The notes below the pieces were generated by a model. It was not told the origin of the DNA. It ran no database searches and saw only the letters and a list, made by a program, of their open reading frames with translations. 64,000 nt of DNA from Gammaproteobacteria bacterium (GTDB lineage Bacteria; Pseudomonadota; Gammaproteobacteria; DSM-16500), in assembly GCA_013287885.1 (NCBI GenBank), contig JABDCZ010000003.1:12801-76800 (forward strand). The letters run 5' to 3'. Position 1 is the first letter of the stretch. Every line of letters starts with the position of its first letter. Shown here in pieces: positions 13,486-41,331 of the stretch. Position numbers and translations under genes: made by a program.

Positions 13486-14040
13486 ATGAGGGGTGAAGTT
13501 CGAATTATTGGGGGTGAATTCCGTGGGCGGAAGCTAAAAATTCCAGAAATATTGCATCTTCGACCCACGCCTGATCGCGTACGGGAAACCTTATTTAATT
13601 GGATCGCACCCGTTTTGCCGGGAGCGCATTGTTTAGATGCGTTTACGGGGAGTGGTGTTTTAGGATTCGAAGCCATTTCTCGAGGGGCGGCACATGTTGT
13701 GATGGTGGATGAATCACTTACGGTTGTGAAGTTAATTCAAGAAGAACTTGAACTTTTTAATATAAAAAACGCAGAAATATATCAAGCGTCTTTACCAAGG
13801 CAATTAAAAAAACCCGAAAAATTATTCGATATCGTTTTTTTAGATCCCCCCTTTCAAACCGATTTGTTAAAAAGTATGAGTATTTACCTTGAGGAAAATG
13901 GGTTTTTGAGCCCTCATGCGCTGATTTATTTGGAAGCGAAAACGATGTTGACAGAAAAAGATATTCCAGCTAACTGGGAAATCATTCGCAGCAAAAAAGC
14001 AGGGCAGGTGGCGTATCATTTGGCGAGAAGATTGGTATAA
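13486..14040 (+). CDS. rsmD: 16S rRNA (guanine966-N2)-methyltransferase
   Basis: 184 aa. IIGGEFRGRKL...RPTPDRVRETLFNW...LDAFTGSG...VFLDPPF is the RsmD signature. Confidence 0.9.
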   Translation: MRGEVRIIGGEFRGRKLKIPEILHLRPTPDRVRETLFNWIAPVLPGAHCLDAFTGSGVLGFEAISRGAAHVVMVDESLTVVKLIQEELELFNIKNAEIYQASLPRQLKKPEKLFDIVFLDPPFQTDLLKSMSIYLEENGFLSPHALIYLEAKTMLTEKDIPANWEIIRSKKAGQVAYHLARRLV

Positions 14041-14078: not shown

Positions 14079-15146
14079 ATGGTGAAAACAAAACCACGAT
14101 TATTAACCGGCGATACACCCACCGGGCGATTGCACTTAGGGCATTATGTTGGATCGCTCGAAAATCGAATTGCGTTACAAAACGATTATGATTGTTATTT
14201 CATTATCGCGAATATCCATGCTTTTACCACGCGTTCGGATAAACCCGCGGAAATTCATCAAAGCGTGATTGATATTGCGATGGATTATTTAGCCGCTGGT
14301 ATTGACCCCGCGAAATCCACCATTTTTATTCAATCAGACATTCCTGCGATTGCAGAGCTCACTTATTTTTTTAGCATGTTGTTGCCTTTGGCGCGAGTGA
14401 TGCGAAATCCCACGATTAAAGATGAAATTCGCGATAAAAAATTAGGGGATAATTATCCTTTTGGATTTTTACTTTATGCAGTCGGTCAAGTGGCAGACAT
14501 TTTAGCGTTTCGCCCGGACATTGTGCCGGTGGGCGAGGATCAAATTCCGCATATCGAAATGACGCGTGAAGTCGCCCGAAAATTTAATCAGTTATATTGC
14601 GGTGTCGATCCGCATACGGAAGATAAGGATTATTTAAACGCAGGTGGGTTGTTTCCGATTGTTGAAACCAAATTGGGTCGCCAAAAACGGTTGGTTGGCA
14701 CCACGCCTCCTGATGAGAATGGTAACCTATTAAAAATGTCAAAATCACTGCATAACGCTATCTTTTTAAGTGATGATGCCGATACGATTGTCAAAAAAGT
14801 GATGGGAATGTACACCGATCCCAAACGATTAAAAGCAAGCGATCCAGGGTCCACTGAAAATAATCCGTTATGGATTTTTCATGATACTTTTAATCCTGAT
14901 ACCGCATGGGTTAATGATGCTAAAGCGCGTTACCGAGAAGGAAAGATTGGCGATGTGGAGTGTAAAAAACGTTTAATCGAGGTGCTCGAAAATCTGATTA
15001 AACCAATACGTGAACGTCGCGCGCATTTTATGGATGATGAATCAGAAGTCATTAAAATATTGAAAAATGGGGCAGAAAAAGCGAATATGGTGGCGATGGA
15101 GACGCTAAAATTGGCCAAAATCGCCATGAAACAAAATTATTTTTAG
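14079..15146 (+). CDS. trpS: Tryptophan--tRNA ligase
   Basis: 355 aa. Class I motifs TGRLHLGHY and KMSKS, with TrpRS-typical spacing and GEDQ. Confidence 0.93.
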   Translation: MVKTKPRLLTGDTPTGRLHLGHYVGSLENRIALQNDYDCYFIIANIHAFTTRSDKPAEIHQSVIDIAMDYLAAGIDPAKSTIFIQSDIPAIAELTYFFSMLLPLARVMRNPTIKDEIRDKKLGDNYPFGFLLYAVGQVADILAFRPDIVPVGEDQIPHIEMTREVARKFNQLYCGVDPHTEDKDYLNAGGLFPIVETKLGRQKRLVGTTPPDENGNLLKMSKSLHNAIFLSDDADTIVKKVMGMYTDPKRLKASDPGSTENNPLWIFHDTFNPDTAWVNDAKARYREGKIGDVECKKRLIEVLENLIKPIRERRAHFMDDESEVIKILKNGAEKANMVAMETLKLAKIAMKQNYF

Positions 15147-15199
15147 TACTATACTTATAACAAATAGATAAAGGCTGAAACCAAAACGAGGTGTATATC

Positions 15200-15502
15200 A
15201 TGATTAAATTCAATGATTTAAAAAAAATGGGAGAAGATTTTCTTGATTCTGCAAAATCTGTAAAATTTCAGGAAGTGATGGATAAGTTCAAAAAAAAGGA
15301 AGTAGTGCTGACTGATGAAGTTGCAGAAAAAGTGAATCAAGATTTGCAAAAAACTTTAGAAACCCTTGCAAATTTACAAAAATCGCAAGCCGAAACGTTG
15401 CATCAATTACAGCATCAAGTGGATGATCTTTTACAATTTCTCGATCATTTCCAAAATAAAACGAACCTTAAAGGAACAGAAGAACATGAACCCAAAGAAT
15501 GA
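15200..15502 (+). CDS. Hypothetical coiled-coil protein
   Basis: ATG at 15200 after GAGGTG; 100 aa; no domain recognised. Confidence 0.45.
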   Translation: MIKFNDLKKMGEDFLDSAKSVKFQEVMDKFKKKEVVLTDEVAEKVNQDLQKTLETLANLQKSQAETLHQLQHQVDDLLQFLDHFQNKTNLKGTEEHEPKE

Positions 15503-15608
15503 AGATTTAATGGAATACCGAACTTTAAAATTACCTTTGTTAAAGTTGATGTCGTTGCTTGCTGTTTTAGGTGTTGCGGCAACGCTTTTGTTGCATTACT
15601 TTTTTTAA
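15486..15608 (+). CDS. Possible 40-aa single-TM peptide overlapping the preceding ORF
   Basis: MNPKNEDLMEYRTLKLPLLKLMSLLAVLGVAATLLLHYFF. Overlaps the 15200..15502 ORF by 17 nt and is followed by a REP hairpin. Confidence 0.3.
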   Translation: MNPKNEDLMEYRTLKLPLLKLMSLLAVLGVAATLLLHYFF

Positions 15609-15625
15609 TGGTGATGTTTTTAATG

Positions 15626-15666
15626 ACGCTGTCATGGAAGCGGAAAGCATGCTGGCATGACAGCGT
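15626..15666. repeat. Palindromic element of the TGTCATGCCAGC...GCTGGCATGACA family (degenerate copy)
   Basis: 11-bp perfect arms acgctgtcatg / catgacagcgt. The inner sequence is related to the copies at 22155, 31277, 47934 and 49661. Confidence 0.6.
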
Positions 15667-15967
15667 TAAGTAGGGGAATGGTTATTTCTTGTATAATAAA
15701 AAATAATGATAAAAAACAGAATAAAACCGAGAATTAACTCGTAGAATTTTGCATCGCATTGGAAATTAAATATTCCACTAAATCAATTTGTTCTTGTGCC
15801 GGCTTATCATTGCCGAGATATTCAATAAGCTCAATGGCGAGGAAATTATTTTGGTCAAGTCGTTCCATAAGATCCTATTCTCATTTTTTGTGCCGGGTTC
15901 CATATGAAAACACGATGGTAAAAGTTTTAATAGATGAAAATATATAAGCGAATTTTATCCCATAAAT

Positions 15968-15995
15968 TTTACATATAAAAAAACTATGATAAAAT
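15968..15995 (+). promoter_or_regulatory. Candidate sigma-70 promoter for the 16022-21490 operon
   Basis: TTTACA (15968-15973), 16-nt spacer, then an extended -10 TGaTAAAAT (15987-15995). GAGGAG follows at 16007-16012 and the ATG at 16022. Confidence 0.35.
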
Positions 15996-16021
15996 CGGCA
16001 AAAAATGAGGAGAAGTAAAAA

Positions 16022-17341
16022 ATGAGCTCGGCATCCTATGAAGAAACACGTTGGGATGAAGTGAGGGAAAAGGTACAAAAAGTCAATCCCGGTTTTGCAG
16101 ACGTGGTAGATAAAATCAAATCGAAAAACGATTATCCACTTTTTAAAGTTCGTTATCCTTTTGGTAGTAGTATCATTGACACGGGAAAGTTCCAATTTCC
16201 CCTTTCAGACGGCTCTCTTGCGCCAATGGATCATCCTGGAATCCCAGATCGTGTTCGACAAGAACTCGGCTATCACAACGGTCATATTCCTCTAGGAATG
16301 GTGTTAGATCGATCTGTTGAATTATTTATGCGAACAGAAAATCGTGTCATTCCATTTAATTTGATTAAAGCCGGACGATTAGTCGGTTTAACCTTTGTAT
16401 TAAGCCCCGTGCATGTATGGCCGCAAGCATGGCATATGACATCCGGTGCACGTTCGATTTTTGTTTTACCCAAAATAACCGATATTCATAATCATCGAAA
16501 ATTGTGTCGTGAACGTAAGATTAAAATGCCGCTTGCCCGTGATCTTCGCACACATTGGTCATTATTAACTAAAATGGCAGCGGATGAGAATTTTTCCCAA
16601 AAGTGGCATACCGAAATCCTTTTTTTCTCAAAAAATTGGATAGACAACAAAAAAAATGATAATTGGTTGCGTTTCAATTATTTTTTGTATAAAGATGGAT
16701 GGGCTGCGATTGAGTACATGCTGACAAAAACCATGCATGATCATATTTGGGATATTTTGATTCGTGAATTAACACAATACGAAGTAAAAGCAAGCCCTTT
16801 TATCATCGATGTGACGAAATATATCATCATGGTAGGTCTTGGCGCGGTCCCCGGATTTTCACCGGCAATTAATGATGATGAAGCGCCTATTTGTGGATTA
16901 CAGGAAGACTTTATTCAGCATTATGGCTTAAAAAATTATGCGCCAACGATTATGATTCCGCATCATTTTTCCGTCGAAAATAAGCGTCCGGTGTACTGGT
17001 CTCTTGCAATGCCAACCCATTTTGAATCAACCGTTAAGCCGAAAACCTTGACAAGTACGATGGTGACATTGCGGGAAATTCGTGAAATGATGTTTCATTT
17101 CAAACAGACCATGTTAAAATATTCGAAAACAAGAGATACCAATACTTCTACAGAGGAATTTTTGAATAAAGTACGTTTCGATTTTTTTCACAGCGAACCT
17201 GATGCAGAAGGTCAAATACGTTTAAGTTTAGAAATGCCAAAAGAAGACAACTCACTTACATTTTGTTCACAAAATATGGTTCGTCGATTTTCTGATGTCA
17301 GCCCTTTTGTGCGCGGATGTGTGCGTTTTAATACTATCTAA
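16022..17341 (+). CDS. Uncharacterised 439-aa protein, first gene of the YcaO/TfuA operon
   Basis: Long ORF with a good RBS and no motif I can assign. It ends 20 nt before the 42-aa ORF. Confidence 0.7.
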   Translation: MSSASYEETRWDEVREKVQKVNPGFADVVDKIKSKNDYPLFKVRYPFGSSIIDTGKFQFPLSDGSLAPMDHPGIPDRVRQELGYHNGHIPLGMVLDRSVELFMRTENRVIPFNLIKAGRLVGLTFVLSPVHVWPQAWHMTSGARSIFVLPKITDIHNHRKLCRERKIKMPLARDLRTHWSLLTKMAADENFSQKWHTEILFFSKNWIDNKKNDNWLRFNYFLYKDGWAAIEYMLTKTMHDHIWDILIRELTQYEVKASPFIIDVTKYIIMVGLGAVPGFSPAINDDEAPICGLQEDFIQHYGLKNYAPTIMIPHHFSVENKRPVYWSLAMPTHFESTVKPKTLTSTMVTLREIREMMFHFKQTMLKYSKTRDTNTSTEEFLNKVRFDFFHSEPDAEGQIRLSLEMPKEDNSLTFCSQNMVRRFSDVSPFVRGCVRFNTI

Positions 17342-17361
17342 TTCAACCTTAGGAGAAAATC

Positions 17362-17490
17362 ATGACCGAAAATGTAATTAAAATTGAGGCGATAACAGAA
17401 ATAAGTGTGCAAGAATCGATTGAAAATTCAACCGCAGTTGCTGCCAATATTATTTCAAGTATTGAAAATAATTCTCTCGATTTAACTTAA
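17362..17490 (+). CDS. 42-aa ORF, candidate precursor/substrate peptide of the YcaO-TfuA system
   Basis: AGGAG at 17351-17355, 6-nt spacer, ATG at 17362. My own translation is MTENVIKIEAITEISVQESIENSTAVAANIISSIENNSLDLT*. It is absent from the ORF track (<60 aa) and sits between operon genes with no spare intergenic space. Confidence 0.5.
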   Translation: MTENVIKIEAITEISVQESIENSTAVAANIISSIENNSLDLT

Positions 17491-17505
17491 TTGATTGGTA
17501 TTTTT

Positions 17506-17763
17506 ATGGCTTTTGTGCGAATACCAAGTGTTTTAATGAAATGGATAAATCCTGCGGAAAAATTGAATATCGCGGGTGATACCGTGAGTGTTGTGTTGCA
17601 AAATCTTTTTTTGGATTATCCTTCGCTTAAGCCATTCATATTTCCATCTGATGCGTTATCTCCGTTTATTAATATTTATGTCAATCGCTCACCCGCGCTT
17701 CTTTCAAACGCAGTTAAAGAAAATGATGAAATTGATATTGTAGCTGCGCTTTCCGGAGGATAA
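17506..17763 (+). CDS. ThiS/MoaD-family ubiquitin-like sulfur-carrier protein (C-terminal Gly-Gly)
   Basis: 85 aa from the ATG at 17506, ending ...NDEIDIVAALSGG*. Size, beta-grasp-like pattern and terminal GG fit ThiS/MoaD. It directly precedes an E1-like gene. Confidence 0.75.
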   Translation: MAFVRIPSVLMKWINPAEKLNIAGDTVSVVLQNLFLDYPSLKPFIFPSDALSPFINIYVNRSPALLSNAVKENDEIDIVAALSGG

Positions 17764-17766
17764 TTT

Positions 17767-18876
17767 TTGCAGTTTCATGCTTCCGAAAAAACTCGATATG
17801 CACGCCAACAATTATTGCCTGATATTGGTGAATTAGGGCAGATGCACCTTCGCAATGCCCGCGTGCTTTGCATTGGTGCAGGGGGGTTGGGTTCGCCATT
17901 ATTATTATATCTCGCAGCTGCTGGTGTCGGTACGATTGGTATCGTGGATCATGATATTGTTGAGCTTTCAAATTTACATCGCCAAATTATTTTTAATTCG
18001 GAAGATGTTGGTACAAAAAAAGTTTCTGCAGCTAAAAATAGGATACATGCATTAAATCCGCATATAGAAGTTCTGAGTTATGAAGACAAAATATCACGAG
18101 CCAATGCAGAAAGTATCATTGCATCGTTCGATATTATTGCTGATGGTACCGATAATTTTAACGCACGATACATTATTAATGATGCTTGTTTTCGTTTAAA
18201 AAAACCGAATGTGTCTGCAAGTATTTTCCAATTTGAAGGACAATGTAGCATATTCACCGATGATAATGGTCCGTGCTATCGGTGTTTATACCCCGATATG
18301 CCTTCTTCTCAATGGATGCCTAATTGTGCTGAGAGTGGAGTATTAGGTGTTTTGCCTGGTATATTGGGCACGATACAAGCGACCGAAGTGTTGAAATGGA
18401 TTTTAAAAATAGGCAATTCATTAAAAAATCGTTTATTAACCGTCGATGCGCGAGAAATGCAGTTTCGTGAATTTCAGATTGAAAAAAATCCGCATTGTAT
18501 TTTATGCGGTGAAAATGCATCGCGCGAAAATTTGATTGATAGTTTAATTGATAGAGAGGAGCAATGTATGAATGCTGTTATTCCAGAAATTTCCATTCAA
18601 GAGTTAAAAGCTTTGCAAGATAAAGGCGAAGAATTTGTTTTATTAGACGTGCGTGAACCGAGTGAATACGCTGAATGTGAAATGGGTGGTAAGCTCATTC
18701 CGATTGGTGAATTGGCAGCGCGCGTGAGTGAGCTCGATCCCACCAAAAAAACGATTGTGCATTGTCGTGGGGGTGGACGTAGTAAGCGCGGTGTTGAAAT
18801 ATTAAAAAATGCAGGATTTCACGATGCGCGTAATTTAACGGGTGGGATTACGGCATGGTTGAAAACTTTTCCCTAA
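17767..18876 (+). CDS. MoeB/ThiF-type E1 adenylyltransferase fused to a rhodanese domain (MoeZ/MoeBR type sulfurtransferase)
   Basis: TTG start. RYARQQLLPDIGELGQ..., VLCIGAGGLGSP nucleotide loop, two CxxC pairs (CYRC, CILC), and a C-terminal rhodanese with the active-site loop HCRGGGRS. Confidence 0.9.
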   Translation: MQFHASEKTRYARQQLLPDIGELGQMHLRNARVLCIGAGGLGSPLLLYLAAAGVGTIGIVDHDIVELSNLHRQIIFNSEDVGTKKVSAAKNRIHALNPHIEVLSYEDKISRANAESIIASFDIIADGTDNFNARYIINDACFRLKKPNVSASIFQFEGQCSIFTDDNGPCYRCLYPDMPSSQWMPNCAESGVLGVLPGILGTIQATEVLKWILKIGNSLKNRLLTVDAREMQFREFQIEKNPHCILCGENASRENLIDSLIDREEQCMNAVIPEISIQELKALQDKGEEFVLLDVREPSEYAECEMGGKLIPIGELAARVSELDPTKKTIVHCRGGGRSKRGVEILKNAGFHDARNLTGGITAWLKTFP

Positions 18877-18992: not shown

Positions 18993-20057
18993 TTGCTTAA
19001 AATAGATAAAAAACTACCCCCCTATCTCCAAACTCTCGGCATCACTCGCGTTGCAGACATTACCGGATTAGATTGCATTGGTATTCCAACAGCGCTTGCC
19101 ATTCGTCCGAATGGCAAACATATTTCAGTTTCCATGGGAAAAGGTTTGACGCAAGAATCAGCTTATATTTCAGCAGTCATGGAATCGATGGAAATATTTC
19201 ATTTAGAAAATCCGCCTGCGATTTCTTTTGAAGATATTTATTCAGAAAACTGTGTTTCACCTGCACTTTTTAACACGGGATTTTTTTTAAAAAATAATTG
19301 GGATCATGAAGTCCTTGCATGGACTAAAGCATTTCATCTTTTCGACAATAAAGAAATTTATATTCCTCATGCGCTAACCAATCTTGATTCAACGGTTCCA
19401 TGTGCGCATCGTGCATTTTTCGATGTGAGCACCAATGGCATGGGGGCGGGAGAAAATGTTGATGATGCGATTTGTCATGCGCTTTGTGAGGTGATAGAGA
19501 GGGATAGTTTAGCGCGTTTTGCTTTATTGCCTGATCATATTCGTCAAACAAAATTGTTTAATCAAAGTGAAATATCTTCAACAAATCATGACTTAATTGA
19601 AAAATTTTTACGACAAAATATGTCTTTGAAGATATGGGATATTACTTCTCATTTTAATATTCCAACTTTTCATTGTGTGTGTCATGATCCAAATCCTTTT
19701 CGTTTACAAGGAATTTTTCGAGGAACGGGCACACATTGGAATGCTGATATTGCATTAATACGTGCGCTTTTGGAAGTGGCGCAATCGCGTTTAGCGCTTA
19801 TTTCGGGATCGAGAGATGATATTTTTGCGGAGCAATATGAAATCAAAGTGCTCTGTCATCCCCGTGAAGACGGGGATCCATTCAAAATAAATCACACGGA
19901 GCGTGGGAATGGCAAAATAGATTCGTCAATTTTAAAATCTCAAATTTTAACACGCCTATACGAAAATAATATCAATGATGTATTCATGGTAATACACACA
20001 AAACCTGAATTGAATATTCCTGTCGTACAAGTTTTTATTCCAGGTTTGATGCGATGA
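18993..20057 (+). CDS. YcaO-family ATP-dependent amide-activating enzyme (short, single-domain)
   Basis: 354 aa, TTG start. ITRVADITGLDCIGIPTALAIRP, SAVMESMEIFH, CEVIERDS and the C-terminal IPVVQVFIPGLMR tail match the YcaO ATP/Mg-binding and proline-rich C-terminal motifs. Confidence 0.85.
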   Translation: MLKIDKKLPPYLQTLGITRVADITGLDCIGIPTALAIRPNGKHISVSMGKGLTQESAYISAVMESMEIFHLENPPAISFEDIYSENCVSPALFNTGFFLKNNWDHEVLAWTKAFHLFDNKEIYIPHALTNLDSTVPCAHRAFFDVSTNGMGAGENVDDAICHALCEVIERDSLARFALLPDHIRQTKLFNQSEISSTNHDLIEKFLRQNMSLKIWDITSHFNIPTFHCVCHDPNPFRLQGIFRGTGTHWNADIALIRALLEVAQSRLALISGSRDDIFAEQYEIKVLCHPREDGDPFKINHTERGNGKIDSSILKSQILTRLYENNINDVFMVIHTKPELNIPVVQVFIPGLMR

Positions 20058-21490
20058 ATATTATTGTTTTTTTAGGTCCATCGCTTGCCATTAATGAAGC
20101 GAAAAAAATATTACCCGATGCCATGTATTTACCGCCAGCGGCGGCGGGGGATATTTTGCATGTGATACGTTTAAAACCCAAGATGATTGCCATTATTGAT
20201 GGATTTTTCGAAAAAAAGGCGTCTATTCTTCATAAAGAAATTTTATTTGCTTTGGAATCGGGGATTGCGGTATTTGGTGCAAGTAGTATGGGAGCATTGC
20301 GTGCGCGAGAGTGTCAATTCTATGGAATGATAGGTATTGGCAAAATTTATGAAAAATATTTTGTCGATTGTAATGAAGATGACGCCGTTGCCATGTTGCA
20401 TGCATTATCTTCTGAGGAATATGCGCCAAAAACGATAGCATTAATGGATGTCATTTTTACTTTAGAAAAAGCAGTAGCATCAAATATTATTGATAAAGAA
20501 ATCGCATCTTTAATTGAAAAATCAGCGCGAGAGCTTTTTTATATTTATCGAACATTCGAAAACATTGTAGAAAAAGTTAAACAAAATTCTGAAGTAAATA
20601 TATCTTGTTTTGAAAAATGGATTTTACAAAATGGATGGGTTAATCAGAAAAAAGAAGACGCCATTTCTCTTTTACAATATTTATCAACAAATCCTGAAAT
20701 TAAAAAAATTAATTTTTGTTTTGCGCGTTCTTTGTTTTTTCGTGCACACTATAAAAATGCAATGTGCCAGCCTTTTCCTTTTGATCACGAAGATTTACCT
20801 ATTGCTGAAAAAATTGCAATTCAAGCTAAAAATAATGGAATTATTTATCGACAATTGCAGCGTATCTCTTATTTGCTCGCCATATGTTTTGCGCTTTCCA
20901 AAAAATATGTTGTAGGAGTGGATTGGGGAAAATTAGATACGCCTCAAAAACGATTTTCTGCTATTGAAAATCTTATGCAGACGCAAACCCATTCATCACA
21001 TCTATTTTATTTATATTCTTTAATGCGTTTATCATCCGAAAAGGAATATCAATATTATCGTGATCAAGTTTCATCTGAAGATAAAATGGCAGAAATGTTT
21101 TTAGAAGATTCGCCTGTAAAATACCGTGTATTTGAATTATGTGCAAAATTGTGGGGGCTGGTTGAGCATTTCATTTCGAATTTTTTACCTCACCCGAAGT
21201 TTGTGCAAGTATACAGTGATAAGTTTCGTTTAAAACATGAATTATTAACGCCTGACGATACGATGAAATGGTTACAGCAAAATGATCTTACATTAAAAAC
21301 CTATCAAGATTTGATGACAATGGCGACTCGGTTTAATTATATTGTGATGCAAAATAATGTGGAGGTCTTAGGTATTTTAGATCATGAAGAAAATATTTGG
21401 TGGTTTGGGGATGCGATGGAATTGTCGGGATCAGTTATCTCAATAACGTCGTCCCGCGACTTGTTCGCGGGATCCAGAGCAACATCGTAG
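20054..21490 (+). CDS. TfuA-domain protein with a ~250-aa C-terminal extension
   Basis: N-terminal IVFLGPSL...LPPAAAGDIL...IAIIDGFF...HKEILFALESGIAVFGASSMGALRA is the TfuA signature. The start overlaps the ycaO stop (ATGA). 478 aa in total. Confidence 0.8.
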   Translation: MNIIVFLGPSLAINEAKKILPDAMYLPPAAAGDILHVIRLKPKMIAIIDGFFEKKASILHKEILFALESGIAVFGASSMGALRARECQFYGMIGIGKIYEKYFVDCNEDDAVAMLHALSSEEYAPKTIALMDVIFTLEKAVASNIIDKEIASLIEKSARELFYIYRTFENIVEKVKQNSEVNISCFEKWILQNGWVNQKKEDAISLLQYLSTNPEIKKINFCFARSLFFRAHYKNAMCQPFPFDHEDLPIAEKIAIQAKNNGIIYRQLQRISYLLAICFALSKKYVVGVDWGKLDTPQKRFSAIENLMQTQTHSSHLFYLYSLMRLSSEKEYQYYRDQVSSEDKMAEMFLEDSPVKYRVFELCAKLWGLVEHFISNFLPHPKFVQVYSDKFRLKHELLTPDDTMKWLQQNDLTLKTYQDLMTMATRFNYIVMQNNVEVLGILDHEENIWWFGDAMELSGSVISITSSRDLFAGSRATS

Positions 21491-21603: not shown

Positions 21604-22149
21604 ATGAATCTGCGTGCCAGATATCTCGAAGCGCTTAATGCTCTCAAAGAAGAAAATAATAAATTTAGAAAGATAGTTCTTAAAGAGCCATCTGCTCAAA
21701 CCAAAGAAGAAAATGATGTGTTGAAAGAGCCGCTCAATTTTTTTATGCCTGCTCTTGAAAAGTTACAAACTTTTTCTAAAGATGCTGATGAATTAATTAA
21801 AATTCTCAGTCCTGAAGATGAAGAGCAAGTAAAAAATATTTTTGACGATGCACAAAATAATATGGAAATTGCAATATTACGTGTCGATAAGGGACCAAAG
21901 ATTGATCCTTTTGATTCACGTTCGGTCTCAAAAGCTCTATTTAAGGGTGTATTTGCACAAGCAGAACTTCAAGAAAAAATAGCAAAATGCAAAGAATTTG
22001 AAGCCAAGCATGCGTCCAAGGAAACTACTAAACCCGATGTGACCATGACCGCTGAACTCGATTCGAAACCAACACCAAAATCTACGCAAGATGTTATGGA
22101 AGATGATGGAGAAGAAATCATGAATCGCATCCGCCGGACGCGTTGTTAA
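21604..22149 (+). CDS. Hypothetical coiled-coil protein
   Basis: 181-aa ORF with AAGGA upstream; no domain recognised. Confidence 0.5.
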   Translation: MNLRARYLEALNALKEENNKFRKIVLKEPSAQTKEENDVLKEPLNFFMPALEKLQTFSKDADELIKILSPEDEEQVKNIFDDAQNNMEIAILRVDKGPKIDPFDSRSVSKALFKGVFAQAELQEKIAKCKEFEAKHASKETTKPDVTMTAELDSKPTPKSTQDVMEDDGEEIMNRIRRTRC

Positions 22150-22188: not shown

Positions 22189-22263
22189 AATGGTCTTTAA
22201 TAAAGACTCTGAATGCCAGAGCCCTTTTATCTGGAATTCGCGTTTATAATAAAGGAAAATGTA

Positions 22264-23736
22264 ATGCCAATAAAAGAAAACCAAATTAACCTTTTAAAAA
22301 AAATACTAGCCAATAAAATTTCTACCATAGCAGAAGATTTAAAAAAACATAGTGGTAATCAATTCTATTCAGAATCATGTTTACCCGATGCTGTATGTTA
22401 TGCAGAATCAGAAAAGGATATTATTGCTCTTACTAATTTTTGCGTGAAATATCAAATTCCAATAATTCCTTATGGAAGCGGAACAAGTGTGGAAGGCCAT
22501 TTAACGCCAGTATTAGGAGGCATTTCACTTGATTTAAGTAAAATGAATAAAATTATTACGTTTCAACCAAAAGATTATTTAATTGTCGTTGAACCTGGAA
22601 TATCTTACAACAAATTAAATGAATTTTTAGAACCACATGGCTTCCATTTTCCGGTAGAAGCAGGTTTCGGCGCAAGTATTGGGGGTATGGTTGCAACTAA
22701 TGCATCTGGTGCAGGTGCAACAGACTCAGGCTCTATGGCACAAAATATACTAGGATGTTCAGTCATTTCATATAAAAATGAAGAAGCTTATAAAATTACT
22801 ACTGGTAGTCATTCACTAAAATCCTCAGCGGGATACAACATGACTGCATTATTTGCTGGCTCTGAAGGTACGTTAGGAATCATTACAGAAATTTCTCTTA
22901 AAATAAGAAAAAATTTACCATGTAACTTTACAATTTGTACTCAATTCGATGATATATCATCGGCTATTGATTTTGTTATTGCAACCAAAGGTATTATACG
23001 TTTCAGAAGAGTGGAATTACTTGATAAATTGCAAACTGAAATGTGTATACAATTTTCAAATATTGATATTCTTGATAAAAATAAAAATACTATTCTTATT
23101 GAATTATTTGGATCATATGCTGTAATTGAAGATGAAGCAAAAATTATCAATATGAATATAAAAAAATTTGGTGGAAGTAATTTTCAAATTTATAGAGATA
23201 AGCAATCAGCGGAATTTATTTGGAAAATGCGTAAAAATGCTTGTCCCGCTGTTTTGAGTTGTTCTTCAAAATCTAAGAAAGCTATGGCAACAGATGCTTG
23301 CGTACCCTTATCAAAATTATCGGAATGTATTAATTCGTGTTACGTTGAAATGAAAAAATTAGGAATAAATGCTCCTTTAGTTGCTCATGTTGGTGATGGT
23401 AATTTTCATTTTACATTAACAGTGGATCCGAGTGACAAAGGAGAATTTGCTAAAAATCTTGCATTTAATAAGTTCATTGTAAATGAGGCGTTAAAATTTA
23501 AAGGCACTTGTACTGGCGAACATGGTATTGGTTTCGGAAAAAAATCATATTTAGAAACGCAATATAAAGATAGTTTATTCTTAATGAAGCAAATAAAAAA
23601 AACATTAGATCCTTTAAATATTTTTAATCCAGGGAAAATTATTAATATGGAAAATAAAAATGATCATGATTGTTATAATTCCACTAACTGTTCAGACACC
23701 TCTTATTCTGAACCGAAGATAAGGGCAAAAATTTAA
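22264..23736 (+). CDS. FAD-linked oxidase, GlcD / D-lactate dehydrogenase family
   Basis: ATG at 22264 after AAGGAAA. PCMH-type FAD-binding pattern PIIPYGSGTSVEGH, C-terminal GTCTGEHGIGFGK and LDPLNIFNPGKI. Confidence 0.85.
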   Translation: MPIKENQINLLKKILANKISTIAEDLKKHSGNQFYSESCLPDAVCYAESEKDIIALTNFCVKYQIPIIPYGSGTSVEGHLTPVLGGISLDLSKMNKIITFQPKDYLIVVEPGISYNKLNEFLEPHGFHFPVEAGFGASIGGMVATNASGAGATDSGSMAQNILGCSVISYKNEEAYKITTGSHSLKSSAGYNMTALFAGSEGTLGIITEISLKIRKNLPCNFTICTQFDDISSAIDFVIATKGIIRFRRVELLDKLQTEMCIQFSNIDILDKNKNTILIELFGSYAVIEDEAKIINMNIKKFGGSNFQIYRDKQSAEFIWKMRKNACPAVLSCSSKSKKAMATDACVPLSKLSECINSCYVEMKKLGINAPLVAHVGDGNFHFTLTVDPSDKGEFAKNLAFNKFIVNEALKFKGTCTGEHGIGFGKKSYLETQYKDSLFLMKQIKKTLDPLNIFNPGKIINMENKNDHDCYNSTNCSDTSYSEPKIRAKI

Positions 23737-24430
23737 AAAATAATAATTCAGGATCAAATTTATAATTAATTTTATTTGTATCGTATATATTAATTCCTTC
23801 TTTTCGTTTTAGATAATTCATCAGAAAGAGAAGAGGGAAGATCATTATTAGGGAATAAACCATTTTTAATATCCATGAGGATATAATTAAACCTAGAATA
23901 CCTTTGATCGGTATTACACCAAAATATGTAATAATATATGTTATGATATTAAAAACAATTTCAGAAATAGCTGTTGACCATAAGCATCTTTGAACAAAAT
24001 ATTTACCCTGAAAGAAAAATTTAAGACGAGTGATTTTATAAATATTTGTTAGATCGCTAAATAGTAAACCAATTAAACAACCACCTACCAAGCGAATCCC
24101 ATGCCCAAAAGCTTGGATAAATACTTCTTGATGTGGGGCTGTTTCTACTGATGGCATTCGTACTATGATGGCAATTATTGCTGTAAATGCAGAAAGACAA
24201 AATACGCTTGAATAAATCATTCGTAAAGCCAGGTCTCTTCCATATGCTTCTGCAACAGCGCCTCCAAGTAGGTAGGTTAAAGGAAAGATAAAAATTCCGC
24301 CTGGCTCACTGAAGCCGAAAAAATTTATAATTTTATATGGCAATAACGTTGATGCAATAAGAAGAGTACAATAAAACATTGAAATAAAAGTGAAATATTT
24401 AAATTGTTGATTAGGTCTTTCGTGAATCAT
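23684..24430 (-). CDS. yhhQ: VUT-family queuosine-precursor transporter (YhhQ-like)
   Basis: 248 aa, polytopic. FIFPLTYLLGGAVAEAYG matches the YhhQ/DUF165 signature. Confidence 0.75.
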   Translation of the reverse strand: MIHERPNQQFKYFTFISMFYCTLLIASTLLPYKIINFFGFSEPGGIFIFPLTYLLGGAVAEAYGRDLALRMIYSSVFCLSAFTAIIAIIVRMPSVETAPHQEVFIQAFGHGIRLVGGCLIGLLFSDLTNIYKITRLKFFFQGKYFVQRCLWSTAISEIVFNIITYIITYFGVIPIKGILGLIISSWILKMVYSLIMIFPLLFLMNYLKRKEGINIYDTNKINYKFDPELLFFKFLPLSSVQNKRCLNS

Positions 24431-24436
24431 TTTTAG

Positions 24437-24910
24437 TTATTTCCGTAAATATTTTTTTATGAATTCCATTCCCCATATGCAACCAATTTTATGAGCGTCT
24501 AGAGAAGAAATATTTTTGATTAAATTTTTGTCTAGGGAGGCATTTTCTGCCGTGACAGTAATCTTATTTTTAGTGATAACATTTGTAAAAGTTAGCATTT
24601 CGCTATTTGTTTCCTGACAAAAAAAAGTATCTGATAAAACTAATTGGCTTTTATGATATGTGATTTCAAATAATTGTTTTATATCTAATGGAGAAAAGTA
24701 TTGAAAAAGATTTTCGTCAATAATTTTTTTAGGATCAACTTCAAGAACATGCGATTGTCCAGAAAATTGAATTTGTGCAAGAAGCTCACTTTGTTTTTCG
24801 ATGATTTTAATTAATTTACACGGATATGGTAAAGCTTTTTTTTCCAATTGAATATACTTTGTAGTTAACCACTGAATAATATTAAAAAGATTCAGTTCTT
24901 TTTTTTTCAT
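24437..24910 (-). CDS. Hypothetical protein co-transcribed with the CI-like repressor
   Basis: ATG at 24910 after AAGGAA, 10 nt downstream of the repressor stop. 157 aa; no domain recognised. Confidence 0.5.
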   Translation of the reverse strand: MKKKELNLFNIIQWLTTKYIQLEKKALPYPCKLIKIIEKQSELLAQIQFSGQSHVLEVDPKKIIDENLFQYFSPLDIKQLFEITYHKSQLVLSDTFFCQETNSEMLTFTNVITKNKITVTAENASLDKNLIKNISSLDAHKIGCIWGMEFIKKYLRK

Positions 24911-24920
24911 ATGTATTTCC

Positions 24921-25610
24921 TTATTCGTTAATCTTGTGATCATATATAGTTCTAATGACCGTACCTATAATTCTATCTTTTATAGAAATTTTTCGGATTG
25001 TATCAAATTTATTATTAAATGCATTAATGAAGTTTCCATCGTGATTTTTTATGAAATGGCGCAGGATTGGCTTTTCTGTATTATAAATTTGTATAATAAT
25101 GTAATTATTATTTTGCGGTAATAATTCCGGTTCGACAATAACTTTACAATTTTCTAAAAAAAGGGGCTCCATGCTTTGATCAGAAACATTCATAGCAAAT
25201 GCCCTTTTACTAACTTTGCATTCGGAAATTATAAATTTGGTGGGTTTGTATTTATCGATTTCAAGGATTTGGAATTCATTAAATAAAGGGATTTCGTTCC
25301 AGCCAAAATGATTATTGGATGTGTATCCTTTCCAAGTTGTTGTTACATCTTTTTCTCCGATGAATTCACTTAATGATAGCATAAAGTAATCAGCAAGTGG
25401 TTTCATCGTTAATAATTTGGGATTTTTATTTTCTCCCGATAATAAACGATGAATGATGGGTTGTCTAACATTTGTTCGTCTGCTAAGTTCACTTTCAGAA
25501 ATATTTGCTAATAACATAAGTTTTTTTAAATTTTTGGCAATATTGGGGTAAAATTTTTTTTCCTTAGAAAGACTTATTTTTTTTTTCGATTTAGACGAAT
25601 TATTTTCCAC
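24921..25610 (-). CDS. Phage CI/LexA-like repressor (XRE HTH plus peptidase S24 domain)
   Basis: HTH ANISESELSRRTNVRQPIIHRLLSG. S24 nucleophile motif VSDQSMEPLF. The C-terminal beta-rich region aligns by eye to lambda CI. Confidence 0.8.
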   Translation of the reverse strand: MENNSSKSKKKISLSKEKKFYPNIAKNLKKLMLLANISESELSRRTNVRQPIIHRLLSGENKNPKLLTMKPLADYFMLSLSEFIGEKDVTTTWKGYTSNNHFGWNEIPLFNEFQILEIDKYKPTKFIISECKVSKRAFAMNVSDQSMEPLFLENCKVIVEPELLPQNNNYIIIQIYNTEKPILRHFIKNHDGNFINAFNNKFDTIRKISIKDRIIGTVIRTIYDHKINE

Positions 25611-25700
25611 AAATATTGTCTCTTAAAATAATTTAATAATTAATAAAATTGAATTTAATAAATGTATCATTTTTTTAAATAAGCAACTATAAAATTTTTT

Positions 25701-25744
25701 ATACTCCAAAGTATTGATCATTATAATATTATACTTTAGAGTAT
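25701..25744. promoter_or_regulatory. Two ATACT-N4-AGTAT palindromes bracketing a TATAAT box (candidate operators in the divergent promoter region)
   Basis: Site 1 is 25701-25714 (atactccaaagtat) and site 2 is 25731-25744 (atactttagagtat), with centres 30 bp apart. TATAAT lies at 25722-25727. Confidence 0.5.
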
Positions 25745-25776
25745 ATTCGGATTAGATTTTGAAGGATTATTAATTT

Positions 25777-26232
25777 ATGGCAGCATTGGAACCCTTGTGT
25801 CATTTATTTGGAGTAAACCCAAATAAATTTTCAAAATATGAAAATATTTTAATCGAAACAGATATTTTTATAAGAATATTTGAGAAACTTAAAGAATTTT
25901 ACAGGCAGCAACATTCTATTCACTCTTTTATATCGTTAAAATTAAATGGAGACATGATAAACATGATGGATTCAAACATAGCAAAGCATATTATTAATGA
26001 TATTACCTCTACAAATGAATATACCATCCAAGGAATTTCAAATTATACAAGCATTCATGTAGATATACTCACTGATCTTGCAGCAGGATTAAATACAAAT
26101 CCATTGTTAACAAATTTTAGAAGAATAGTTGAATTACATCGAGAGGTTAGGCCTAAGTTATATCATACAATAGCAAAAAAAATTATTGCTGAGTTTGAAT
26201 TAATTTGTGAGGATGTAGACTCAAGTATATAA
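25777..26232 (+). CDS. Hypothetical protein, divergent from the CI-like repressor
   Basis: 151-aa ORF; no domain recognised. Confidence 0.45.
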   Translation: MAALEPLCHLFGVNPNKFSKYENILIETDIFIRIFEKLKEFYRQQHSIHSFISLKLNGDMINMMDSNIAKHIINDITSTNEYTIQGISNYTSIHVDILTDLAAGLNTNPLLTNFRRIVELHREVRPKLYHTIAKKIIAEFELICEDVDSSI

Positions 26233-26324
26233 GTTGTTAAACTTTTCAAAGGCGCGATGATTATTTAAAAAATCACCATACATTCCTTATACTAGTTATA
26301 TACATTCAAATTATTGTATCCTTT

Positions 26325-26397
26325 TTGTCATCCTGAGCGGAGCGTTGAAATCTTTTTAATTTTCGTTAGACCTCTCGCTTTCGCTAAGGATGAGAAG
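26325..26397. repeat. Palindromic REP-like element (TGTCATCCTGAGCG ... CGCTAAGGATGA)
   Basis: The 12-nt terminal arms are complementary with one mismatch. The motif gagcg(g/t)agcg is also seen at 31290 and 62222. Confidence 0.5.
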
Positions 26398-39369: not shown

Positions 39370-41331
39370 CTACCCCGGAGTGACAGATTTGTTGATGCCT
39401 TTTTTAGACGTTTCTAAAACCTCACTCATTTCCTTTAAAATAATCGCAGACTTTTGCGGTAAATTTACTTTATCCTCTGGTATCGTTAATTTTTCGGTTT
39501 CTTCATAATTTTTTGTGAGGGTTTGGAAAAAATTGAGTTCTTTTGTTTTTAAAGCCAGCTTGTTTGCTAATCTTGGATTGAATTCTTCAAGTTTTAGAAT
39601 GGTATTATTTTTTTGTTCATCTTCAGATTTTTGTGACAGTGCATCCTTTTCTTTCGAAAGATGTGCAATATGCGCTTTAAGTTTGGGATTGATAACCTCA
39701 TTTTTATCATCCGCTTTAAAAAACATGTACGGATTTTGTTTATAATATTCCACGGTACTGTCGTAACGTTCTTCCAGATATTTTTGTTGTTTTTCGAGAT
39801 AGAGCATTCGACTATGTAATGTTTGCATGAGTTCATGATGAATAGTTAATCCACTATAATTTCCTGCATATTCAAAATGACTGACGATGAACGTGTACAA
39901 TCCTCTTTTTGCTTTTAATGTGTTTTCTAAATATTTTTGATATGTTTCAAGACGTTCGTGATTCATGCAAAGATCATCTTTGTAGGTTTCAATGTATTCT
40001 TCTAGATTTTCAATGATTTCAGGAGGAATATTGAATAAAGAAAATGGTCTGTAATGCATGAATTCACGTAATTTTGCCAATTGCTCATCTATGACAATTA
40101 AATTATTTTCATTAGATTCGAGTCTTGCGAGATAATACACATACTTTTGTCTGGCATAATCGACAGGAATTCGGAGTTCATAGGTAATTTGGTTGTAACG
40201 TTCAACTAATAATTCAACATGATTTAATAGATATCCATCTTTGAGATGTAGCTCACTTTCCAAATTGTCAGCGATACATGCTAATTTTTCTAAAAGAAAA
40301 TTTAATTTTTTTAATTGATTTTTTATTCCTTCCGTAAAAGGATTGGATTGTTCCGCAATGATGGCTTGATAATCAAATTGAAAAAGTGAATTGTAAGCGC
40401 GTCGCAAGTCTTTCACAAAGGTTGTCATCCAGCCGACACTTTGAAAAAAACCAGATTGTTGATATTCTTCATGATCATTTAATACTTTTTTAATACCAAT
40501 GACACCATTTAATAATAGCTTAAGATTTTTAATCGTATCGGAATCTTTCGTATTTATTTCATAATAATTTAATATGTTTTCTAGCGAATCTTGCGATTCT
40601 ATTTTAATTTCGCGTGGAAAATAGTCTTCAGGATAAATACATTTCACCCATCCGTCATTTTTCTTAACCAGAAATGTGACAAAATCATCTTCTTTTTTAT
40701 CCTTTTTTTCAGACTCGATATCTTTCACGATCATTTGCTTTCTTCGAATATAATTTTCTTTATATTTTTCGAGTGCAATCAATTGTTCAATGCAAATATT
40801 TTCTAACTTTTCCAAATTTTCATGCGTAATATATTGCGATAATTTATTGAGTTTTTGAATGAGTTCCGGCAAAACGACGCTAATGATAAACTTTTTCGCC
40901 TGCGAGATATAAAGCGTCAAAATATTGTTGGTAGAACTAAATATTTTATAATTTTGGCGAAAATCATAGATATCTTGAATCATTTCCAGTTTGTTAAAAA
41001 ATGCAATAATAGGTTCACCGTGAGAACACAATTGTTTTTGCGCTGCATTTTCAATCGCATGCAACATGTTTAAGCAAGCTTTTAAATCTCGTATCACCGG
41101 AAGATCATGTTCGACAATTAAATATTTTTTTTGCGCGTCACGAAATGAATTTTTAAATTCATGATGAAGTTCCGGTGTTACCATTTCTTCTAAGTGTTTG
41201 AGAAGTATTTCATTTAAGATGATGGTAACATGGTAAATAAATTCAGCAGTATTTTGGGAATTATCTGAAAGTTTTTGCAGAAATTTAATAATTTCTAAGA
41301 TTTGTTCTGGCGTCATCCGTAACTCCAACAT
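39370..41331 (-). CDS. Large hypothetical coiled-coil protein (653 aa), effector-like
   Basis: Long ORF, K/E/L/N-rich, no recognisable domain. Confidence 0.6.
   Translation of the reverse strand: MLELRMTPEQILEIIKFLQKLSDNSQNTAEFIYHVTIILNEILLKHLEEMVTPELHHEFKNSFRDAQKKYLIVEHDLPVIRDLKACLNMLHAIENAAQKQLCSHGEPIIAFFNKLEMIQDIYDFRQNYKIFSSTNNILTLYISQAKKFIISVVLPELIQKLNKLSQYITHENLEKLENICIEQLIALEKYKENYIRRKQMIVKDIESEKKDKKEDDFVTFLVKKNDGWVKCIYPEDYFPREIKIESQDSLENILNYYEINTKDSDTIKNLKLLLNGVIGIKKVLNDHEEYQQSGFFQSVGWMTTFVKDLRRAYNSLFQFDYQAIIAEQSNPFTEGIKNQLKKLNFLLEKLACIADNLESELHLKDGYLLNHVELLVERYNQITYELRIPVDYARQKYVYYLARLESNENNLIVIDEQLAKLREFMHYRPFSLFNIPPEIIENLEEYIETYKDDLCMNHERLETYQKYLENTLKAKRGLYTFIVSHFEYAGNYSGLTIHHELMQTLHSRMLYLEKQQKYLEERYDSTVEYYKQNPYMFFKADDKNEVINPKLKAHIAHLSKEKDALSQKSEDEQKNNTILKLEEFNPRLANKLALKTKELNFFQTLTKNYEETEKLTIPEDKVNLPQKSAIILKEMSEVLETSKKGINKSVTPG

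Follow-up and report, generated by a model that had tools for sequence, protein, structure and literature searches.

The window analyzed here is a 64,000-nucleotide stretch of contig JABDCZ010000003.1 (positions 12,801 to 76,800, forward strand; GenBank assembly GCA_013287885.1) and belongs to a gammaproteobacterial chromosome of low GC content, on which RpoH, FtsY, and PBP1a are of proteobacterial type. It holds a predicted six-gene operon in which an open reading frame (ORF) of only 42 codons lies between the gene for a 439-residue orphan protein, named A439 here, and the genes for a ThiS-like sulfur carrier, a MoeZ-type E1/rhodanese protein, a YcaO-domain enzyme, and a long TfuA protein. 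The short ORF proved to be a gene under selection, and its genomic context suggests that the encoded peptide is most likely the substrate in a new family of thioamide-modified ribosomal peptides. All coordinates are given in window numbering.

A 42-codon gene within a sulfur-transfer operon

The short ORF (17362 to 17490, + strand) runs from an ATG at 17362 to a TAA at 17488–17490 and encodes the acidic, cysteine-free peptide MTENVIKIEAITEISVQESIENSTAVAANIISSIENNSLDLT, with a net charge of approximately −6.5. A Shine–Dalgarno (SD) motif, AGGAG (17352 to 17356, + strand), is located 6 nt 5′ of the start codon; the stop codon of A439 (17339–17341) leaves a gap of 20 nt before the peptide ATG, and the ATG of the ThiS-like gene (17506) begins 15 nt past the peptide stop. 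A preliminary description of the locus, which proposed that the ORF specifies the precursor of a ribosomally synthesized and posttranslationally modified peptide (RiPP), had reported the same layout and the same acidic, Cys-less composition, and all of these elements were found again in the sequence. It had also called the ORF unannotated, which has to be corrected: the exact peptide sequence is already present in public gene predictions (NCBI, JGI/IMG, and Logan), where it carries neither a name nor a family, and the gene is uncharacterized rather than strictly unannotated.

A phmmer-type search identified an ortholog of equal length (P0002; 42 amino acids, 69% identity) on L002, a related metagenomic Logan contig that is fully syntenic with the window. 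In the DNA alignment of the two loci, the segment IENSTAVAANIISSIE is unaltered although third positions changed often, and the codon-position differences across the peptide gene amount to 8/4/20. For the same pair, the Nei–Gojobori method gave a dN/dS of 0.154 for the whole peptide and 0.044 for residues 11 to 35 (dS ~1.2, within the ~1.1 to 1.5 found across all genes compared), alongside values of 0.033 for A439, 0.061 for TrpS, 0.084 for E1, 0.14 for YcaO, and 0.22 for ThiS. Because dN/dS is low and the differences follow the 8/4/20 pattern, purifying selection clearly acts on the protein encoded by this frame, which is a genuine gene. The preliminary description had made its proposal depend on conservation of the frame in related genomes, and this expectation was borne out.

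The position of the gene is likewise conserved beyond this pair. Among more than 60 loci (designated L) gathered by a metagenome scan and contig look-ups, an SD-preceded, ATG-initiated ORF of 30 to 60 codons, starting no more than 210 nt downstream, follows 9/15 A439 genes that are at least 40% identical to that of the window, compared to 16/308 background ORFs (5.2%; Fisher p = 8e-8); only 4/31 A439 genes of less than 40% identity are followed by such an ORF. SD-like motifs are also found 5′ of the small ORFs in L002, L007, L058, L059, L010, L011, and L061.

The peptide and ThiS ORFs share one frame in the window (17362 to 17763, + strand), parted by a single TAA and 15 nt, and the ORF list contains a TTG-initiated, 90-residue ThiS frame that starts directly after the peptide stop. 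A readthrough fusion of the two products is ruled out by L002, in which the frame differs and the peptide ends with a double stop (TAATAG); judging from these sequences, the shared frame in the window is probably a coincidence. A function as an attenuation leader peptide was also rejected, since the ORF lacks runs of regulatory codons and the sequence up to ThiS holds nothing that convincingly resembles a terminator.

The 4 genes that follow encode sulfur-transfer and amide-activating proteins. The 85-residue ThiS/MoaD-like sulfur carrier (17506 to 17763, + strand) matches PF02597 (1.5e-6) and the SAMP1 model NF041918 (3.6e-7), and its C-terminus, ...AALSGG, ends in Gly-Gly. Next comes an E1 adenylyltransferase of the MoeZ/MoeB type that carries a rhodanese domain at its C-terminus (17767 to 18876, + strand; PF00899, 9e-83; PF00581, 1.1e-14), which scores 410 bits with NF006444 and 373 bits with the MoeZ model NF005902. 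The YcaO-domain ATP-dependent amide-activating enzyme (18993 to 20057, + strand) is recognized by PF02624 (2e-57; 195 bits, cutoff 25.7) and TIGR00702 (172.9 bits, cutoff 75.65), and its best specific NCBIfam model is TIGR03266, the YcaO of McrA-glycine thioamidation, at 186.6 bits, which does not reach the cutoff of 365. The TfuA gene (478 codons; 20054 to 21490, + strand; PF07812, 5e-35, cutoff 30; NF033432, 190.4 bits) overlaps that of YcaO by 4 nt (20054–20057). The TfuA domain proper corresponds to residues 1 to 214, and in the AlphaFold2 (AF2) model (pLDDT 91) this N-terminal domain matches TfuA of M. acetivorans (6XP8) with E = 1.4e-12, a TM-score of 0.89, and a root-mean-square deviation of 2.2 Å. 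It is followed by an all-helical C-terminal extension of ~260 residues (residues 215 to 478; 20696 to 21490, + strand), which is confidently modeled and has no relative in PDB, Pfam, or PHROG. The long-TfuA family comprises 610 matches at E ≤ 1e-20, and the extension is kept in more than 100 protein clusters of 470 to 610 amino acids from Gammaproteobacteria and cyanobacteria; it could serve as a substrate-recognition module.

Outside sulfidic habitats, thioamide-forming YcaOs receive sulfide from a thiocarboxylated ThiS homolog via the hydrolase TfuA (PMC13063428, PMC8153245). Since ThiS, E1, YcaO, and TfuA are all identifiable here and a published scheme of sulfide delivery links them (PMC13063428, PMC8153245), the operon specifies the whole known set of thioamidation tools, including a sulfur donor in the form of the GG-ending ThiS-like carrier and the ThiF/rhodanese E1.

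A439, the peptide family, and their distribution

The preliminary description missed the invariable upstream partner of the peptide, A439, which is linked to it at least as tightly as YcaO. The A439 gene (16022 to 17341, + strand) lies immediately 5′ of the peptide gene in every member of the peptide family and encodes a basic protein (pI 8.9) of an orphan family. A sigma-70-like promoter candidate (TTTACA-16 nt-TAAAAT with TG; 15968 to 15995, + strand), which matches the consensus at 10 of 12 positions and is the best + strand site between 15000 and 24000, is located ~27 nt upstream of the A439 start and is the likely start of the operon. A439 has no match in Pfam, NCBIfam, PHROGs, or PADLOC, and a PDB profile search returned 0 hits. 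Its 59 homologs (~60 clusters) are all hypothetical proteins from uncultured Gammaproteobacteria; a scan of genome contigs with A439 gave a single spurious actinobacterial match, and a scan of viral contigs (IMG/VR) found no relatives. The AF2 model has a pLDDT of 92 and a pTM of 0.91, and Foldseek comparison with PDB and BFVD revealed no usable structural relative, only weak similarity to CRP/cupin-like beta-barrels; the best PDB match has E = 2e-3 and TM 0.26/0.44. In a 20-sequence alignment, used for the pattern scan because the full 57-sequence alignment was too diverse, Ser327, His390, Asp409, and Cys433 are among the invariant residues, the last within a C-terminal motif, SPFVRGCVR. Homologs of at most 36% identity occur in unrelated contexts (methyltransferase, POT transporter, and histidine kinases), mostly with no small ORF. 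Transporters of the POT family (PF00854) adjoin A439 in 8 loci (L011, L015, L018, L019, L022, L048, L055, and L059), and A439 also recurs beside rhodanese/E1 genes, even without YcaO.

Direct phmmer-type searches with the peptide returned the self match and the one ortholog only, and the family was therefore assembled solely via synteny. The peptides of the window, L002, and L007 served to build a hidden Markov model (HMM), with which 11,969 six-frame segments (stop-to-stop, drawn from all loci) were searched; the only near-significant matches, in L010 and L011 (E ~0.04), are each directly downstream of an A439 gene in a YcaO/TfuA locus, and synteny added L057, L058, L061, and L066. The family thus has 9 clear members, namely, the window copy and 8 others of 39 to 58 amino acids (L002, L007, L010, L011, L057, L058, L061, and L066), all located directly after A439 and spanning A439 identities of 43% to 93%. 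A reciprocal HMM, from which the copies of the window and L002 had been left out, recovers the L002 peptide among 15,343 segments (E = 7e-4). Pfam yielded two isolated chance-level matches only for the 9 members, and a search of the accessible literature collection found no paper specific to this system in Legionella or Gammaproteobacteria. Divergent small ORFs preceded by SD motifs also follow A439 in L059, L050, L020, L014/L062, L048, and L065; homology of these to the window peptide is not demonstrable (HMM E 1 to 7).

The N-terminal ~18 residues of the peptide are hypervariable, and conservation is found in a C-terminal block of 23 residues, IENSTAVAANIISSIENNSLDLT (residues 20 to 42; 17419 to 17487, + strand), which aligns gap-free with the 8 other members. 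The 9-sequence alignment yields the pattern Φ-E-x-x-[I/T]-[G/A]-[V/I]-x3-Φ-x4-[E/D]-[D/N]-x-S-x-[D/N]-Φ-[T/S/C], in which E21 and S38 are invariant. T24-A25-V26 of the window peptide is the counterpart of I-G-V in the family, and the acidic tail E-D-x-S-D-D-Φ-T, conserved in the family, is degenerate in the window copy. The preliminary description had drawn attention to a repeated SIEN motif as a possible recognition or modification mark. Both copies exist, the second (SSIENNS) at residues 32 to 38 and not 31 to 37 as given there, but a repeated 4-mer arises in 6.25% of composition-preserving shuffles and the motif is not conserved, so the proposed role had to be abandoned. Each copy falls on a conserved Φ-E position, E21 or E35; these positions are 14 residues from each other and flank the central T-A-V (I-G-V in other members). 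Because both copies sit there, the repeat mirrors a genuine feature, the Φ-E pair, rather than a SIEN motif kept by the family.

A small ORF at the equivalent position, which the preliminary description had suggested looking for in homologous YcaO/TfuA loci, is kept in every cassette with a long enough contig. Complete sets of small ORF, ThiS, E1, YcaO, and TfuA occur in the window, L002, L011, L059, L061, and L062, the last with unrelated genes inserted between the small ORF and ThiS, and the same gene order extends up to the contig end in L007, L050, L058, and L066. The L057 contig ends 1 kb past E1, and the same sample holds a DUF559-YcaO-TfuA arrangement at the start of contig L060. In this sample, SRR21362128, the ORF for DUF559 (a Vsr-like endonuclease) lies ahead of YcaO at the contig break after E1, and the gene caller fuses both. 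In L010 (1093 to 7359), two divergent A439 paralogs (46% identical) flank the peptide gene, and short ThiS/E1 remnants are found before YcaO. In L066 (134 to 5243), the A439-peptide-ThiS-E1-YcaO array shares a 5.2-kb contig with an adjoining gene for plasmid replication (RepA_C), and this proximity suggests that the cassette can be plasmid-borne.

Two loci uncouple A439 from the rest of the operon. In L006, A439 (79% identical to that of the window) is followed directly by E1, and in L008, only a rhodanese comes after a more distant A439 (56% identical); neither locus has the peptide, ThiS, YcaO, or TfuA. Because these loci keep A439 and have lost the other 4 genes together, the peptide tracks the cassette and not A439. 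The long-TfuA family, in turn, is also found without adjacent A439 (L063 and L064). Evolutionary rates show the same association: A439 is 93% identical between the window and L002 where YcaO and TfuA are 68% to 75% identical, and pairwise peptide identity tracks that of ThiS, YcaO, and TfuA (~60% to 85% in close pairs), whereas A439 remains housekeeping-like at 85% to 93%. The peptide is thus strictly linked with both partners: its position ties it to A439, its presence/absence and rate to the sulfur cassette.

Flanking genes and other small ORFs

Upstream of the operon, the genes for RsmD (13486–14040, + strand) and TrpS (14079–15146, + strand) are separated from A439 by a 0.9-kb spacer (15147–16021) with small conserved ORFs. 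One of these, an acidic ORF of 44 codons (MERLDQNNFLAIELIEYLGNDKPAQEQIDLVEYLISNAMQNSTS; 15734–15868, − strand), is oriented divergently upstream of A439, is 61% to 90% identical in every TrpS-linked locus, L006 and L008 included, and has a weak match (E = 0.002) ahead of A439 in L059. Its conservation exceeds that of the 42-residue peptide, and it may encode another A439-associated small protein. A 40-residue single-transmembrane ORF (MNPKNEDLMEYRTLKLPLLKLMSLLAVLGVAATLLLHYFF; 15486–15608, + strand), followed by a terminator-like hairpin (15575–15595), comes after TrpS in all syntenic loci, and a coiled-coil-like ORF of ~100 to 103 codons (15191–15502, + strand) is kept in the closest relatives only. 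The 44-residue and the transmembrane ORFs were considered as alternative precursors and ruled out, as both persist in the cassette-less L006 and L008.

Downstream of TfuA, a 181-codon orphan gene (21604–22149, + strand) and a gene for a GlcD-like, flavin adenine dinucleotide (FAD)-linked oxidase (22213–23736, + strand) had no counterpart in any related locus by tblastn, and it is doubtful that they belong to the system. The adjoining region (23500–26500) is very AT-rich (GC 0.22 to 0.31) and holds a Vut_1-type transporter, an orphan 168-residue gene product, and a LexA/CI-like repressor with helix-turn-helix and S24 peptidase domains (24921–25610, − strand); it may be an island or a prophage remnant. 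Further on, 3 large ORFs (26435–29023, + strand; 31389–34892, − strand; 39370–41331, − strand) encode proteins of 862, 1167, and 653 amino acids with no NCBIfam match at E ≤ 1e-10, and a second FAD-linked oxidase is encoded at 29580–31253. Rfam detected no RNA family in the window.

A candidate thioamidation substrate and its alternatives

The operon has the components of a generic YcaO–TfuA cluster for a thioamidated RiPP, that is, YcaO, an adjacent TfuA, a conserved small ORF, and a sulfur donor. Like the clusters for thioviridamide, thiostreptamide S4, thiovarsolins, and thiopeptin-type thiopeptides, it has adjacent, translationally overlapping YcaO and TfuA genes and a small ribosomal peptide gene within the operon, but it differs from them in its own ThiS and MoeZ-type E1, in A439, and in a TfuA with a 260-residue extension. 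In thioamitides, the thioamidated stretch is Val-Met-Ala-Ala-Ala, of which the small and hydrophobic AVAA/IGV core of the peptide is reminiscent, a resemblance to be taken as a lead only. The thioamitides otherwise stand apart: Pfam and NCBIfam searches of the operon and its flanks revealed no HopA1-like protein, phosphotransferase, LanD-like protein, lanthipeptide dehydratase, or cyclodehydratase; their precursors have a C-terminal Cys, whereas the window peptide is Cys-free; and thioamitide-type hosts are actinomycetes and not uncultured low-GC gammaproteobacteria.

The archaeal McrA thioglycine system, in which the YcaO "methanogenesis marker 1" works with TfuA, provides the best-scoring specific models for the window YcaO and TfuA (TIGR03266 and NF033432), shares the TfuA fold (6XP8, TM 0.89), has a counterpart to its modified glycine in the small residue (Gly/Ala) at the conserved center of the peptide family, and follows the same sulfur-delivery logic, in which TfuA hydrolyzes a ThiS thiocarboxylate (PMC8153245, PMC13063428). 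Both equivalog models nevertheless score below their cutoffs (186.6 versus 365 bits for TIGR03266 and 190.4 versus 235.2 bits for NF033432), and the window has no McrA, a bacterial context, ThiS and E1 within the cluster, and a putative substrate of 42 residues instead of a large enzyme subunit. YcaO of the E. coli type thioamidates ribosomal protein uL16, placing a backbone thioamide next to a Gly; enzymes of this type have no TfuA nearby and are acidic, matching the basic uL16 (PMC13063428). They also come from Pseudomonadota and show that a YcaO without an obvious precursor can act on a protein; the window YcaO, in contrast, scores 19.6 bits with NF040716 (cutoff 700) and is accompanied by TfuA, ThiS, E1, and the small ORF. 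A pathway forming azol(in)es, as in thiazole/oxazole-modified microcins (TOMM) or linear peptides that bear azol(in)es (LAP), finds no support in the score with the SagD-type YcaO model (TIGR03604, 94.8 bits, cutoff 219.25), and no dehydrogenase, such as the FMN enzyme of these pathways, is present; unlike the E1 partner proteins of such pathways (TIGR03882, 22.7 bits, cutoff 36.9), the window E1 is a bona fide MoeZ/MoeB protein with a rhodanese domain. The tiny precursor gene, the conserved C-terminal motif, the highly conserved partner, and the lack of a bacteriocin-type exporter or peptidase recall PqqA of pyrroloquinoline quinone and MftA of mycofactocin biosynthesis, but the operon has no radical S-adenosylmethionine enzyme, PqqD-like RiPP recognition element (RRE), or other hallmark gene of those systems, and no sequence similarity to them was detected.

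On this basis, we regard as fairly probable that the 42-codon ORF encodes a substrate or precursor peptide for backbone thioamidation. The precursor assignment of the preliminary description thus stands insofar as a selected gene lies inside a full thioamidation operon, but not in its appeal to the SIEN repeat. In the proposed mechanism, E1 would adenylate the Gly-Gly end of the ThiS-like carrier and its rhodanese domain would turn the adenylate into a thiocarboxylate, which TfuA would hydrolyze beside YcaO, delivering sulfide; YcaO, with ATP, would activate a backbone amide of the peptide, and the sulfide would convert it to a thioamide. The likeliest site would be within or next to the [I/T]-[G/A]-[V/I] center (T24-A25-V26 in the window), with the Φ-E positions to either side and the acidic tail as recognition elements, and the basic A439, probably an obligatory partner of the system, would bind, further process, or use the peptide. 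We infer from gene context that the peptide rather than a protein is the YcaO substrate, as well as the modification site, the role of A439, and what the end product is and does.

Several observations weigh against a thioamidated peptide. Neither an exporter of its own nor a leader peptidase or RRE domain can be recognized in the operon. Among 1.84 billion proteins (representatives), a profile search returned the peptide itself only, and no curated precursor family (NHLP, Nif11, TOMM propeptides, and others) was matched (9 members versus NCBIfam, none at E ≤ 1; PDB, none). Within the family, the window copy diverges most, with Ala for the near-invariant Gly and SLD for SDD, and the reciprocal HMM fails to retrieve it, its tail being degenerate. 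Hydrophobic residues recur in a heptad-like manner along the conserved block, which could therefore form a binding helix and not a modified core. In L065 (9001–10470), an A439 homolog (42% identity) and an SD-preceded ORF of 37 codons, MSIFTFELNNLSSSNEAGAGLGQLTLATVSHAQPELV, occur with no sulfur-transfer genes within 9 kb, and for this reason the primary partner of the peptide may be A439 rather than YcaO. Finally, folded proteins, McrA and uL16 among them, can be YcaO substrates (PMC13063428), and because A439 is always adjacent, A439 could itself be the true YcaO substrate. As to its setting, the L065 pair is cargo in a prophage/phage region, between tail/lysis and RecT/early genes (tail fiber, lysozyme, and RecT).

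The idea that A439 is the true YcaO substrate leads to an alternative in which the peptide is an accessory subunit (adaptor, chaperone, or regulator) of A439 or of the sulfur relay, and YcaO/TfuA thioamidate a folded protein, most plausibly A439. The invariable adjacency and strong conservation of A439 (dN/dS 0.033) fit a protein substrate that stays static, an argument also made for uL16 (PMC13063428); the charges of A439 (+7) and the peptide (−6.5) are complementary, the conserved block resembles an amphipathic helix, and A439 occurs with a small ORF and without YcaO, as in the L065 prophage. Yet most A439 homologs (~40 loci) have no YcaO/TfuA nearby, L006 and L008 retain A439 where the peptide, ThiS, YcaO, and TfuA are jointly gone, and the faster divergence of YcaO/TfuA relative to A439 is the pattern of a RiPP and not of a protein substrate. 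The charge argument discriminates only weakly, as the mean A439 charge is 6.4 in peptide-linked members versus 4.1 in the others and a basic A439 is not particular to the former. We consider this alternative unlikely, although it deserves more weight than those that follow. Rather doubtful is the idea that the peptide is mainly the substrate or scaffold of A439 as a new peptide-processing enzyme, with thioamidation optional and the product maybe a small peptide-derived molecule, possibly POT-transported. Downstream of most A439 genes with 40% identity or more lies a small ORF with its own SD motif, the divergent ones of L014/L062, L020, L048, L050, L059, and L065 included (p = 8e-8), POT transporters recur, 4 residues of A439 are invariant (Ser327, His390, Asp409, and Cys433), and the cassette has no other protease or tailoring gene. 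A439, however, has no recognizable catalytic fold or motif, the divergent small ORFs show no demonstrable homology to the window peptide, a small ORF follows just 4/31 A439 genes below 40% identity, and L006 and L008 hold A439 without the peptide.

The ORF could in principle also be open by chance or act as a regulatory leader that yields no separate product, since it is short, AT-rich, without a database family, and located in a gap of intergenic size. This explanation is effectively refuted by the comparative data and must be regarded as most improbable: the frame shows a dN/dS of 0.15 and the 8/4/20 pattern at saturating dS, 9 homologs share a gap-free block across A439 identities of 43% to 93%, the SD motifs are conserved, regulatory amino acid runs and a terminator or antiterminator before ThiS are lacking, and the in-frame peptide-TAA-ThiS layout is not kept in L002.

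Backbone thioamides are among the rarest posttranslational modifications, and, to our knowledge, McrA and uL16 are the only established thioamide protein substrates outside actinomycete natural products. RiPP-type candidates beside YcaO/TfuA are common, and the type of thioamidation cassette found here is known; new, as far as can be judged from sequence comparison, are the peptide family and its partner A439. A bolder extension of the preferred reading, which we put forward tentatively and hold to be improbable as a whole, is that A439 and the acidic peptide form a new mobile two-gene peptide-maturation module, seen on chromosomes, a RepA-linked contig, and in a prophage, in which A439 would be an enzyme or receptor of new fold and the cassette would thioamidate the I-G-V center; the product would be a new thioamide peptide, or a small molecule derived from it, of Legionellales-like intracellular bacteria, possibly moved by POT transporters. 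The locus represents a compact, self-sufficient cassette (carrier, E1, YcaO, and TfuA), and its 42-residue peptide is a clear candidate substrate; the cassette could be reconstituted directly in E. coli and could show how the ThiS thiocarboxylate, TfuA with its extension, and YcaO cooperate on a peptide. The orphan A439 family, with a confidently predicted fold and no structural relative, gains a defined biochemical context. If the peptide is modified, it would define a new precursor family and extend thioamide RiPP chemistry into uncultured low-GC Gammaproteobacteria.

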